DNA of 64,000 nucleotides from Escherichia coli (lineage in GTDB: Bacteria; Pseudomonadota; Gammaproteobacteria; Enterobacterales; Enterobacteriaceae). Both the position numbers and the translations under genes were made by a program. Positions 45,138 through 47,256 of the stretch are shown here, in pieces. The notes below the pieces were generated by a model. It searched no databases. It worked only from the letters and a program-made list of their open reading frames with translations, and had not been told where the DNA came from. How positions within the stretch are numbered: the stretch's first letter is position 1; every line of letters begins with the position of its first letter. The stretch lies in assembly GCF_003334335.1 (NCBI RefSeq), contig NZ_QOWQ01000003.1. The stretch is one strand, 5' to 3'.

Positions 45138-47256
45138 GTTATTCTCTGCATTCAGAAAAAATAAAATCTGGGATTTCAACGGCGGCATCCATCCACCGGA
45201 GATGAAAACCCAGTCCAACGGTACACCCCTGCGCCAGATACCCCTGGCGCAGCGTTTTGTTATTCCACTGAAACAGCATATTGGCGCTGAAGGTGAGTTG
45301 TGCGTTAGCGTCGGCGATAAAGTATTGCGCGGCCAGCCGCTTACCCGTGGTCGCGGCAAAATGCTGCCTGTTCACGCGCCCACCTCGGGTACCGTTACGG
45401 CTATTGCGCCCCACTCTACGGCTCATCCTTCAGCTTTAGCTGAATTAAGCGTGATTATTGATGCCGATGGTGAAGACTGCTGGATCCCGCGCGACGGCTG
45501 GGCCGATTATCGCACTCGCAGTCGCGAAGAGTTAATCGAGCGCATACATCAGTTTGGTGTTGCCGGGCTGGGCGGTGCAGGATTCCCGACAGGCGTTAAA
45601 TTGCAGGGTGGCGGAGATAAGATTGAAACGTTGATTATCAACGCGGCTGAGTGCGAGCCGTACATTACCGCCGATGACCGTTTGATGCAGGATTGCGCGG
45701 CTCAGGTCGTAGAGGGTATTCGCATTCTTGCGCATATTCTGCAGCCACGCGAAATTCTTATCGGCATTGAAGATAACAAACCGCAGGCGATTTCCATGCT
45801 GCGCGCGGTGCTGGCGGACTCTAACGATATTTCTCTGCGGGTGATTCCAACCAAATATCCTTCTGGCGGTGCTAAACAATTAACCTACATTCTGACCGGG
45901 AAGCAGGTTCCACATGGCGGGCGTTCATCCGATATCGGCGTATTAATGCAAAACGTCGGCACTGCTTATGCAGTGAAACGTGCCGTTATTGATGGCGAGC
46001 CGATTACCGAGCGTGTTGTAACCCTGACTGGCGAAGCAATCGCTCGCCCGGGCAACGTCTGGGCACGGCTGGGGACGCCAGTGCGTCATTTATTGAATGA
46101 TGCCGGATTCTGCCCCTCTGCCGATCAAATGGTGATTATGGGTGGCCCGCTAATGGGCTTTACCTTGCCATGGCTGGATGTCCCGGTCGTAAAGATTACC
46201 AACTGTCTGTTGGCTCCCTCTGCCAATGAACTTGGCGAACCACAGGAAGAACAAAGCTGCATCCGGTGTAGCGCCTGTGCTGACGCCTGCCCTGCGGATC
46301 TTTTGCCGCAACAGTTGTACTGGTTCAGCAAAGGTCAGCAACACGATAAAGCTACCACGCATAACATTGCTGATTGCATTGAATGTGGGGCTTGCGCGTG
46401 GGTTTGCCCGAGCAATATTCCCCTGGTGCAATATTTCCGTCAGGAAAAAGCTGAAATTGCGGCTATTCGTCAGGAAGAAAAGCGCGCCGCAGAAGCCAAA
46501 GCGCGTTTCGAAGCGCGCCAGGCTCGTCTGGAGCGCGAAAAAGCGGCTCGCCTTGAACGACATAAGAGCGCAGCCGTTCAACCTGCAGCCAAAGATAAAG
46601 ATGCGATTGCTGCCGCTCTGGCGCGGGTGAAAGAGAAACAGGCCCAGGCTACACAGCCTATTGTGATTAAAGCGGGCGAACGCCCGGATAACAGTGCAAT
46701 TATTGCAGCACGGGAAGCCCGTAAAGCGCAAGCCAGAGCGAAACAGGCAGAACTGCAGCAAACTAACGACGCAGCAACCGTTGCTGATCCACGTAAAACT
46801 GCCGTTGAAGCAGCTATCGCCCGCGCCAAAGCGCGCAAGCTGGAACAGCAACAGGCTAATGCGGAACCAGAAGAACAGGTCGATCCGCGCAAAGCCGCCG
46901 TCGAAGCCGCTATTGCCCGTGCCAAAGCACGCAAGCTGGAACAGCAACAGGCTAATGCCGAGCCAGAACAACAGGTCGATCCGCGCAAAGCCGCCGTCGA
47001 AGCCGCTATTGCCCGAGCCAAAGCGCGCAAACGGGAACAGCAACCGGCTAATGCGGAGCCAGAAGAACAGGTTGATCCGCGCAAAGCTGCCGTCGAAGCG
47101 GCTATTGCACGCGCCAAAGCACGCAAGCTGGAACAGCAACAGGCTAATGCGGTACCAGAAGAACAGGTTGATCCGCGCAAAGCGGCAGTTGCCGCGGCTA
47201 TTGCCCGCGCTCAGGCCAAAAAAGCCGCCCAGCAGAAGGTTGTAAACGAGGACTAA
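45130..47256 (+). CDS. rsxC: Rsx complex subunit C
   Basis: 708 aa; C-terminal region contains tandem 32-aa repeats. Confidence 0.95.
46786..47235 (+). repeat. In-frame 96-bp tandem repeat (about 4.7 copies) within rsxC
   Basis: [32 protein letters not shown] unit repeated with minor variation. Confidence 0.85.

Follow-up and report, generated by a model that had tools for sequence, protein, structure and literature searches.

The 96-bp tandem repeat at the 3′ end of Escherichia coli rsxC is the typing locus ms11 and encodes copies of a conserved, predicted basic helix

A gene that ends in several nearly identical units raises the questions of whether the array has been assembled correctly, how its length varies from strain to strain, and whether the repeated peptide has a function or merely fills space. 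In the window, that is the whole stretch of 64,000 nucleotides of E. coli DNA analysed here, Tandem Repeats Finder reports a single array with a period of 96 bp between positions 46786 and 47210 (4.4 copies, 89% matches, 0% indels, score 640), which lies in frame at the 3′ end of the rsxC reading frame. When the tail of the protein is split at the recurring DPRK motif, four full units of 32 aa are obtained, followed by a diverged terminal unit of 28 aa and the stop codon. The full units are pairwise identical at 83–88 of 96 positions, and the terminal unit matches unit 4 at 51 of 84 positions. An earlier reading of this DNA, the first-pass annotation, had counted about 4.7 copies of the 32-aa unit up to position 47235, a fair figure as this position lies within the terminal unit, and had called the unit rich in Ala, Lys and Gln, in agreement with the measured composition of the array (Ala 29%, Glu 12%, Gln 12%, Lys 10%, Arg 10%). 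Each 32-aa module is composed of an 18-residue basic, Ala-rich helix with a net charge of +4 and a subsequent 14-residue acidic spacer of Gln, Glu and Pro with a net charge of −4.

The placement of a 96-bp tandem repeat inside rsxC is correct with respect to both the period and the gene. The product scores 867.4 bits with the NCBIfam equivalog profile NF003454 for RsxC (cutoff 345) and 597 with TIGR01945 (cutoff 246). The operon rsxABCDGE is intact with all five neighbours above equivalog or subfamily cutoffs and with overlapping start and stop codons of rsxA and rsxB (43978–45137; Table 1). RsxC is the cytoplasmic subunit of the Rsx complex, a complex of the Rnf type, and binds NADH/FMN and two [4Fe-4S] clusters; in E. 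coli K-12 it takes part in the NAD(P)H-dependent re-reduction of SoxR (PMC12174285, PMC4759930). In the protein of the window the Pfam domains follow each other in the order RnfC_N (PF13375, residues 14–115), Complex1_51K (PF01512, 139–283), SLBB (PF10531, 296–344) and Fer4 (PF12838, 373–430). On the tail there is no significant Pfam match (E ≤ 0.001) past residue 430 and none whatever past residue 458. The protein also aligns to the solved RnfC chains 8ahx_C, 7zc6_C and 9eri_C, which cease aligning at E. coli residues 443–498, and the PDB sequence search with the repeat tail returned nothing.

Table 1. Features of the rsx operon and of the rsxC repeat region, in coordinates of the window
Feature	Coordinates	Strand	RsxC residues	Basis or remark
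rsxA	43978–44559	+		upstream in operon; profile match above cutoff
rsxB	44559–45137	+		upstream in operon; profile match above cutoff
rsxC, 708 aa	45130–47256	+		ORF and NCBIfam NF003454 match
Antisense ORF, 403 aa	46150–47361	−		pN/pS 2.69 in its frame; non-genic by-product of the repeat
Proximal long helix of the tail, outside the repeat	46423–46650	+	432–507	AlphaFold and phmmer
Antisense ORF, 200 aa, Cys/Ser/Ala-rich	46578–47180	−		pN/pS 0.12; most likely a by-product
Single-copy degenerate segment, possibly core-like	46594–46641	+	489–504	likeness to the repeat core by eye
ms11 forward primer site GAAACAGGCCCAGGCTACAC	46635–46654	+		single exact match, 0 expected by chance
Single-copy degenerate core-like segment with I525	46687–46746	+	520–539	translation
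Alternative-frame ORF within rsxC, 183 aa	46694–47245	+		pN/pS 2.02; by-product
Repeat unit 1	46786–46881	+	553–584	chimera of K-12 units 1 and 2
Repeat unit 2	46882–46977	+	585–616	K-12 unit 3, 0 mismatches
Repeat unit 3 (variant)	46978–47073	+	617–648	K-12 unit 4, 0 mismatches
Repeat unit 4 (variant ...NAVPEEQV)	47074–47169	+	649–680	K-12 unit 5, 0 mismatches
Diverged terminal unit (47170–47253) and TAA stop	47170–47256	+	681–708	
rsxD	47257–48315	+		downstream in operon; ATG directly after the rsxC TAA
ms11 reverse primer site CTGGCGCTGGTTATGGGTAT, inside rsxD	47285–47304	−		single exact match
rsxG	48319–48939	+		downstream in operon; profile match above cutoff
rsxE	48943–49638	+		downstream in operon; profile match above cutoff

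With 708 aa the protein is shorter than RsxC of K-12 MG1655, as had been stated in the first-pass annotation; the gene of MG1655 has 2223 bp and codes for 740 aa. The array (425–468 bp) exceeds the length of short reads, and many RsxC entries in the databases are flagged as partial, as expected if assemblies often break at the array. The four units could on these grounds be an assembly artefact, collapsed from a longer array like that of K-12, but we consider this highly unlikely. The units differ from each other at 8–13 of 96 positions and can therefore be told apart. The complete genome HS30-1 carries an rsxC gene which is 100% identical to that of the window, and UMNK88, likewise complete, matches the window at 100% over an anchored region of 1401 bp. 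As the same array is present in these independent complete genomes, it is not a collapsed assembly, and about 18% of the sampled complete genomes share its length. In addition, units 2–5 of the window (the terminal unit being the fifth) correspond to units 3–6 of K-12 without mismatch, and unit 1 is a clean chimera, as real recombination would give: it has the base of K-12 unit 1 at all eight differing positions within 6–39 and the base of K-12 unit 2 at position 88, and the crossover falls between unit positions 40 and 87. To the extent that sequence comparison allows such a statement, collapse of the array is excluded. The two alleles are one event apart, either a gain or a loss, and differ by exactly one unit.

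How variable is the array within the species? In complete E. coli genomes the annotated rsxC genes code for proteins of 580, 644, 676, 708, 740, 741, 772, 774 and 806 aa. The natural length polymorphism that had been proposed is thus present over a range of 580–806 aa among complete genomes, and the suggested comparison of repeat numbers across E. coli gives numbers that differ between strains. The alleles from complete genomes differ by whole units, with or without one extra Gln codon, and all are in frame. Every allele examined retains the head of the first unit (DPRKT...) and the terminal unit. The length found in K-12 is the modal one, RsxC of O157:H7 has 772 aa, and the longest is a database protein of 937 aa (P0100) with 11 full units. 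At the other end of the series strain 1105 has an intact allele of 580 aa without any full unit, so that E. coli alleles have between 0 and 11 full units; genomes lacking all full units are rare (1 of 5425).

Evenly spaced samples of these 5425 genomes gave the K-12 length in 14 of 24 genomes and the length of the window, or this length plus 3 bp, in 11 of 60. For eight genomes of the larger sample that were left unclassified the gene length was read directly and corresponded five times to 740 aa and once each to 741, 772 and 806 aa. The 4+1 allele of the window (708 aa) is a minority allele in E. coli, and the 5+1 allele (740 aa) is modal. These frequencies rest on annotated gene lengths and, within the evenly spaced samples, on rows in which the full length was matched in a single piece. 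When records covering at least 80% of the query are counted over the 5425 genomes, the numbers are non-monotonic (1119 for the 708-aa, 4076 for the 740-aa and 3022 for the 772-aa allele) and unfit for an allele distribution, because strand and register influence how BLAST pieces are joined. The spans of joined pieces are also unreliable for long alleles; strain H48, for example, seemed to be longer by 96 bp and is annotated with 772 aa. There are two practical consequences. Annotation pipelines can miscall rsxC alleles, as the intact allele of strain 1105 is annotated as a pseudogene, and since assemblies may often break at the array, as the many partial entries would indicate, copy numbers taken from draft genomes need to be checked.

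The array is identical to the VNTR locus ms11, which belongs to an MLVA panel for Shigella and E. coli. The two ms11 primers, which are listed in Table 1 of PMC8215070, are convergent in the window and flank the array, with a predicted amplicon of 670 bp in this strain; that all genomes would give one and the same amplicon size is excluded. The tandem repeat size of ms11 is given as 96 bp (PMC8215070 Table 2), with six alleles (PMC8215070). Thus the primers, the unit of 96 bp and the strain-variable copy number all agree, and at the DNA level there is no difference between ms11 and the array of the window. PMC8215070 credits the ms11 locus of this panel to Gorge et al. (2008, J Clin Microbiol 46:1026) and treats it as an anonymous marker, the encoded peptide not being discussed there. 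The suggestion that the repeat could be used for strain typing is therefore sound but not new, as the published primers match exactly. Given that the array already serves as the MLVA marker ms11, the finding is correct but ordinary: the polymorphism has been known as an MLVA marker since 2008, and the length differences of RsxC are visible in annotated genomes.

Taken together, the feature is very probably an in-frame coding minisatellite, ms11, at the 3′ end of rsxC whose copy number changes by in-register misalignment. Neighbouring units would misalign in register, either by slipped-strand replication or by unequal recombination, and whole 32-aa modules would be added or removed without the reading frame ever being broken. 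The simple-sequence contingency loci of Haemophilus and Neisseria are likewise coding tandem repeats whose number changes by misalignment. However, their units of 1–7 bp shift the reading frame and switch expression, whereas the rsxC unit of 96 bp comprises 32 codons and leaves all alleles from complete genomes in frame. We therefore give very little credit to the idea that the repeat is a contingency locus which switches the expression of rsxC or of the downstream genes rsxDGE on and off by phase variation. Two database proteins, P0132 and P0163, could be taken as examples of such a switch, since a frameshift within the array takes them into the open alternative frame of the 183-aa ORF, but both are single-member clusters and could be sequencing errors. 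In addition, rsxD begins immediately past the rsxC stop codon in all alleles.

The minisatellite also accounts for the long overlapping reading frames of 403, 200 and 183 aa which span the array. The first-pass annotation had taken long antisense ORFs to be spurious, and the two present here (403 and 200 aa) are by-products by pN/pS, by the overlap of wobble positions and by the want of a promoter-like site. Between the units pN/pS is 0.08 in the frame of rsxC, and in the frames of the 403-aa and 183-aa ORFs it rises to 2.7 and 2.0. The ratio of 0.12 in the frame of the 200-aa ORF could be regarded as a sign of coding, but a low value is expected in this frame without any coding because its wobble positions coincide with those of rsxC. 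For this reason an overlapping gene deduced from the low antisense pN/pS was rejected. At the array the antisense strand has no promoter-like site and no Rfam match, terminator-like sites occur at chance level, and the lengths of the overlapping ORFs vary with the number of units. It is thus extremely improbable that one of these antisense or alternative-frame ORFs is a real overlapping gene.

The encoded peptide is far less variable than the DNA, with 31 distinct DNA units giving only 12 peptides. The pN/pS ratios of 0.045 for the core and 0.13 for the spacer, at a pS of about 0.28–0.29, suggest that the repeat peptide is under purifying selection; these between-unit ratios are indicative and not rigorous because the units within a genome evolve in concert and are not independent. 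The core has the consensus DP(R/K)KAAV(A/E)AAIAR(A/V)KA(K/R)K. We aligned the tails of Vibrio, Haemophilus, Mannheimia, Aeromonas, Pseudoalteromonas, Dickeya, Proteus, Providencia, Lonsdalea and Yersinia by free local alignment, which was used instead of a regex-based conservation table that is partly circular, as the regex fixes several columns. In these alignments core is paired with core, with 16–17 of 18 residues identical, and gaps fall over the non-homologous, genus-specific spacers; the period varies from genus to genus between 28 and 67 aa. Judged from the alignments, the basic 18-aa helix core is nearly invariant among the gammaproteobacterial genera examined. In nearly all of the homologues examined the last core starts 26–35 residues from the C-terminus, and in the full-length ones 27–28 residues from it. 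In the searchable literature we found no description of the function of this motif.

Is the repeat then only a passive, disordered spacer without sequence-specific function whose sequence and copy number drift neutrally? Such a spacer would be consistent with the 0 to 11 full units found in apparently healthy isolates, with a spacer part that is unrelated between genera, and with a repeat that is uncovered by any Pfam domain or solved homologue. It would also fit one study in which the full deletion of rsxC alone affected neither viability nor acetate kinetics (PMC4759930). Nevertheless, neutral drift does not explain why pN/pS of the core is so low although pS is about 0.29, nor why the core is retained from Escherichia to Vibrio, Haemophilus, Aeromonas and Pseudoalteromonas although its surroundings have diverged. 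Furthermore, the distance between the terminal copy and the C-terminus hardly varies among the homologues examined, and the loss of all full units is confined to the single genome mentioned above. A passive spacer is thus an unlikely explanation.

Structure prediction and the solved RnfC proteins give a hint of what the tail could look like. An AlphaFold model of the tail, calculated without an alignment, shows a helix–break–helix pattern in which pLDDT is about 80 for the helices and falls to about 50 where they break. Outside the repeat a long proximal helix is predicted (residues 17–92 of a query beginning at residue 416; single-sequence model) with pLDDT values up to 97. With phmmer, RsxC residues 416–498 were aligned to residues 409–483 of 8ahx_C, and going by this alignment the proximal helix is a homologue of the helix at the C-terminus of Azotobacter vinelandii RnfC. 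In the structure of the latter (PDB 8ahx) this elongated helix contacts RnfB and RnfH, and its role is described as not understood (PMC12174285). Both proteins belong to the same family and have a helical extension past the ferredoxin domain. However, the A. vinelandii helix matches the proximal E. coli helix only, which the array follows at a distance of about 50 residues. The A. vinelandii helix was also considered as a carrier of the core and rejected, as its aligned part is unrepeated and does not contain the DPRKAAV...KARK core. Upstream of the array, E. coli RsxC has two degenerate single-copy segments (Table 1). The first may be core-like, to judge by eye from the translation. The second is conserved in fragments from Yersinia and Klebsiella and contains I525; the I525F allele of an evolved K-12 strain has been rated as "null or neutral" (PMC4759930).

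A comparable repeat has been described for RsxC of Erwinia amylovora, which has 0–5 copies of a 40-aa unit depending on the strain and was proposed as a typing marker (PMC10587187). The two repeats are found in orthologous genes and at the same position, namely in the C-terminal tail with a start near residue 553, and the first 16 residues of the units are identical. On the other hand, the Erwinia unit of 40 aa has an unrelated Ala/Pro-rich spacer, and the E. coli unit of 32 (or 33) aa has a Gln/Glu-rich spacer. A solenoid or toroid fold was suggested for the Erwinia repeat by its authors (PMC10587187). In contrast, the model of the E. coli tail suggests separate helices joined by flexible breaks.

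The tail may accordingly be pictured as a flexible string of identical helices on the cytoplasmic, NADH-oxidising subunit of Rsx. Our best guess is that such a string would offer multiple docking sites to a conserved partner close to the Rsx complex, for which a soluble acidic redox protein and other Rsx components are candidates. More specifically, the array could be a multivalent display of the basic 18-residue docking helix, with an acidic patch before it and held by flexible spacers on RnfC/RsxC of the gammaproteobacterial genera examined, which recruits a conserved partner such as an acidic ferredoxin or flavodoxin, SoxR or another Rnf/Rsx component. We put this forward tentatively and consider it possible, though rather doubtful. 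The array is not essential, because strain 1105 has no full unit and Erwinia strains with 0 repeats have been reported; a docking role, if any, would therefore be dispensable or covered by the terminal copy. The differences in copy number are probably close to neutral.

The repeated peptide contains a strongly conserved helix on a subunit whose C-terminal extension is poorly understood, and E. coli offers a ready natural series with 0 to 11 copies of this helix. If the docking reading were true, the alleles with 0 to 11 units would tune the speed at which SoxRS is switched off or the electron flow through Rnf.

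The window carries only one tandem array (period 96 bp, 4.4 copies, 89% matches, no indels, score 640 with Tandem Repeats Finder), which lies in frame with an ORF of 708 aa. By splitting the translation at DPRK we obtain four full units of 32 aa, each consisting of an 18-aa core and a 14-aa spacer, and then a diverged terminal unit of 28 aa which forms the end of the protein. The four full units agree with each other at 83–88 of 96 bases, and the terminal unit is identical to unit 4 at 51 of 84 bases. Both the observation and the interpretation of the first-pass annotation, which had placed about 4.7 copies at 46786–47235 and had contrasted a 708-aa RsxC with about 740 aa in K-12, are correct; RsxC of K-12 MG1655 is annotated with 740 aa.

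The identity of the gene is clear from the RsxC equivalog NF003454 (867 bits, cutoff 345), and the adjoining genes rsxA, rsxB, rsxD, rsxG, and rsxE each score over their own cutoff. Within aa 14–430 Pfam finds the RnfC_N domain, the NuoF-type FMN domain, SLBB, and a 2x[4Fe-4S] ferredoxin domain; there is no significant Pfam match past aa 430 and none of any strength past aa 458. The rsx genes are closely packed, which suggests that they are translationally coupled, so that a frameshift in the array could affect rsxD as well.

Features at and around the rsxC tandem array
Feature	Position in window	Residues of RsxC	Remark
rsxA stop/rsxB start	44559		overlapping
rsxC	45130..47256 (+)		708-aa ORF
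rsxB/rsxC overlap	45130-45137		8 bp
Core-like segment, single copy	46594-46641	489-504	5' of array
ms11 primer match	46635-46654 (+)		exact
Core-like segment, single copy	46687-46746	520-539	5' of array
Open alternative frame	46694..47245 (+)		
Tandem array	46786..47210		
Four full units		553-680	32 aa each
Terminal unit		681-708	diverged, 28 aa
rsxC TAA/rsxD ATG	47254-47259		directly adjoining
ms11 primer match	47285-47304 (-)		exact

The array is the already known VNTR ms11. The ms11 primers GAAACAGGCCCAGGCTACAC and CTGGCGCTGGTTATGGGTAT, which were taken from Gorge et al. 2008 for an MLVA panel listing a 96-bp unit and six alleles (PMC8215070), each match the window once, flank the array and predict an amplicon of 670 bp. 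The proposed use as a typing marker is therefore borne out, yet it is already published. An orthologous repeat in RsxC of Erwinia amylovora (0–5 copies) was put forward for typing in 2023 (PMC10587187); its unit comprises 40 aa in contrast to 32 aa (some 33) in E. coli, and the copy number is variable in both.

By comparing the repeat number across genomes we could confirm that the length polymorphism is natural. The annotated rsxC genes of complete E. coli genomes encode 644 aa (AHB18, TUM2826), 676 aa (O104:H4 2011C-3493), 740 aa (K-12 MG1655, OkiPb01708, STEC388, Ecol_316, 5283, STEC1589), 741 aa (GN25), 772 aa (O157:H7 G5295, GPEC1352, NZRM4165), 774 aa (UPEC 536), and 806 aa (AGR4587, CCUG 73778, AR_451). 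Ten alleles, including that of the window, were decomposed; they have two to seven full units, and the same terminal unit closes every one of them. Units of 33 aa with a fourth Gln are present in AGR4587 (L007), UPEC 536 (L008), CCUG 73778 (L009), and the database protein P0100. This 3-bp polymorphism nested in the 96-bp unit accounts for lengths such as 774, 806, and 937 aa, and the 33-aa units for the +1, +2, and +2 residues of the 741-, 774-, and 806-aa alleles, the 741-aa allele itself being left out of the decomposition. The E. coli database protein P0100 reaches 937 aa with 11 full units. At the other extreme, strain 1105 (NZ_CP023388, L005 2501..4243) has an intact rsxC ORF of 580 aa in which the head of unit 1, DPRKTAV, is joined to the terminal unit and all full units are deleted in frame; PGAP labels it a pseudogene with "missing C-terminus" despite the intact ORF. 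The existence of this allele shows that the array itself is dispensable.

Strain 1105 is last in a ranking of 5425 genomes, and it alone falls below 80% coverage. In evenly spaced samples of these ranked matches, 11 of 60 had the length of the window or 3 bp more, 3 of 60 were shorter, and 14 of 24 had the K-12 length. We estimate that the window allele is in the minority (~18%), that 740 aa is modal (~55–60%), and that about one-fifth of the genomes have a longer one. Genome counts at ≥80% query coverage with queries of rising allele size (1119, 4076, and 3022) are not monotonic and thus unusable as a cumulative distribution, and joined BLAST pieces gave a wrong span for at least one allele (H48). 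No rsxC match was present in one of 5426 E. coli genomes, and plasmid records hold 5–7 of the matching places in the rsxC searches. RsxC lengths in E. fergusonii are 726, 759, and 792 aa, that is, 33-aa steps, and range from 729 to 792 aa in Salmonella and from 704 to 747 aa in Citrobacter; judging from these ladders the orthologous array is probably polymorphic within each of these as well.

On sequence comparison, a collapsed assembly can be rejected. The units are distinguishable from one another, and two independent complete genomes are 100% identical to the window here, HS30-1 over the whole rsxC gene and UMNK88 over a 1401-bp anchored region; ~18% of the sampled genomes share the length of this allele. 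Units 3–6 of K-12 are identical to units 2–5 of the window at every base. In unit 1 of the window, the first 39 positions have all eight bases that are specific to K-12 unit 1, and position 88 has the base of K-12 unit 2. The whole difference is explained by a single exchange, in register, of unit 1 with unit 2 inside their identical 48-bp stretch; it probably arose by slipped-strand misalignment or unequal recombination, as either a loss in the window lineage or a gain in the K-12 lineage.

Two of the three plus frames across the array are stop-free; of the minus frames one is stop-free and one has a single stop. These open frames account for antisense ORFs of 403 and 200 aa and an alternative plus-strand ORF of 183 aa. 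Between units pN/pS is 0.08 in the rsxC frame, 2.7 in the 403-aa frame, 2.0 in the 183-aa frame, and 0.12 in the 200-aa frame, a low value that would arise even in a non-coding frame, since its wobble positions fall on those of rsxC. The 403- and 183-aa ORFs are by-products of the repeat and the 200-aa ORF most likely is one too, in line with the spurious antisense ORFs of the first-pass annotation. No promoter-like sites were found in 46400–47500, where terminator-like sites are at chance level, and Rfam gave no match in 43500–50500. The database RsxC entries P0132 (802 aa) and P0163 (832 aa) are frameshifted within the array and run on for ~170–215 residues in the open alternative frame; they reflect either errors in sequencing or frameshift alleles that are genuine but rare. 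In P0017, P0023, P0055, and P0062 the RsxC tail is fused to unrelated sequence, namely a DmsC-like N-terminus, an Mfd/TRCF fragment or a HATPase_c domain. Their clusters are small, each with a single contig and no more than a few members, and the fusions probably arose as chimeras at the repeat during assembly or gene calling.

The 31 distinct 96-bp units encode only 12 peptides, and pN/pS is 0.045 in codons 1–18 and 0.13 in codons 19–32 (pS ~0.28), values from units which evolve in concert and hence are non-independent. Both results indicate that the repeat peptide is under purifying selection. The net charge is +4 for the core and −4 for the spacer. In the AlphaFold prediction, made without an alignment, a long proximal helix (aa 432–507, pLDDT up to 97) and a second helix (aa 521–551) are followed by one helix of 20–24 residues per full unit and of 26 in the terminal unit, with low-confidence breaks of 8–12 residues between the unit helices. 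Two single-copy segments (aa 489–504 and 520–539) resemble the core helix and look like old diverged copies of it. The mutation rsxC-I525F of an evolved K-12 strain, judged "null or neutral" by the authors (PMC4759930), falls into the second segment, upstream of the array, and is a lead, not evidence.

A sequence search with the tail alone matched almost only RsxC/RnfC tails or fragments, in Salmonella, Klebsiella, Dickeya, Yersinia, Proteus, Providencia, Lonsdalea, Vibrio, Haemophilus, Mannheimia, Aeromonas, and Pseudoalteromonas. As a regex-based conservation table is partly circular, free local alignments were used in its place: 16–17 of the 18 core residues of E. coli are identical in each of ten of these genera, and the spacers between these genera are unrelated and differ in length. 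The core DP(R/K)KAAV(A/E)AAIAR(A/V)KA(K/R)K is nearly invariant in Enterobacterales, Vibrio, Pasteurellaceae, Aeromonas, and Pseudoalteromonas (core-bearing tails of other genera: P0012, P0027, P0033, P0037, P0048, P0053, P0054, P0061, P0064, P0070, P0074, P0093), and a short acidic patch ahead of D-P is also common to the aligned tails. The period (28–67 aa) and the spacer are genus-specific. The last core starts 27–28 residues ahead of the C-terminus in nearly all full-length homologues and 26–35 in more distant fragments.

Alignment to the solved RnfC structures 8ahx, 7zc6, and 9eri ends at E. coli residues 443–498. In Azotobacter vinelandii RnfC, the C-terminal helix touches both RnfB and RnfH, and no function has been ascribed to it (PMC12174285). 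The E. coli segment to which it aligns is the proximal helix and not the core of the repeat. In the searchable literature the core motif string occurs in the Erwinia paper only (PMC10587187), and a functional description of the core was not found. Our best guess is that the tail would act as a flexible, multivalent display of a putative docking helix for a conserved partner. The sole part of these findings that may be new is the conserved core helix in the tails of RnfC/RsxC proteins.
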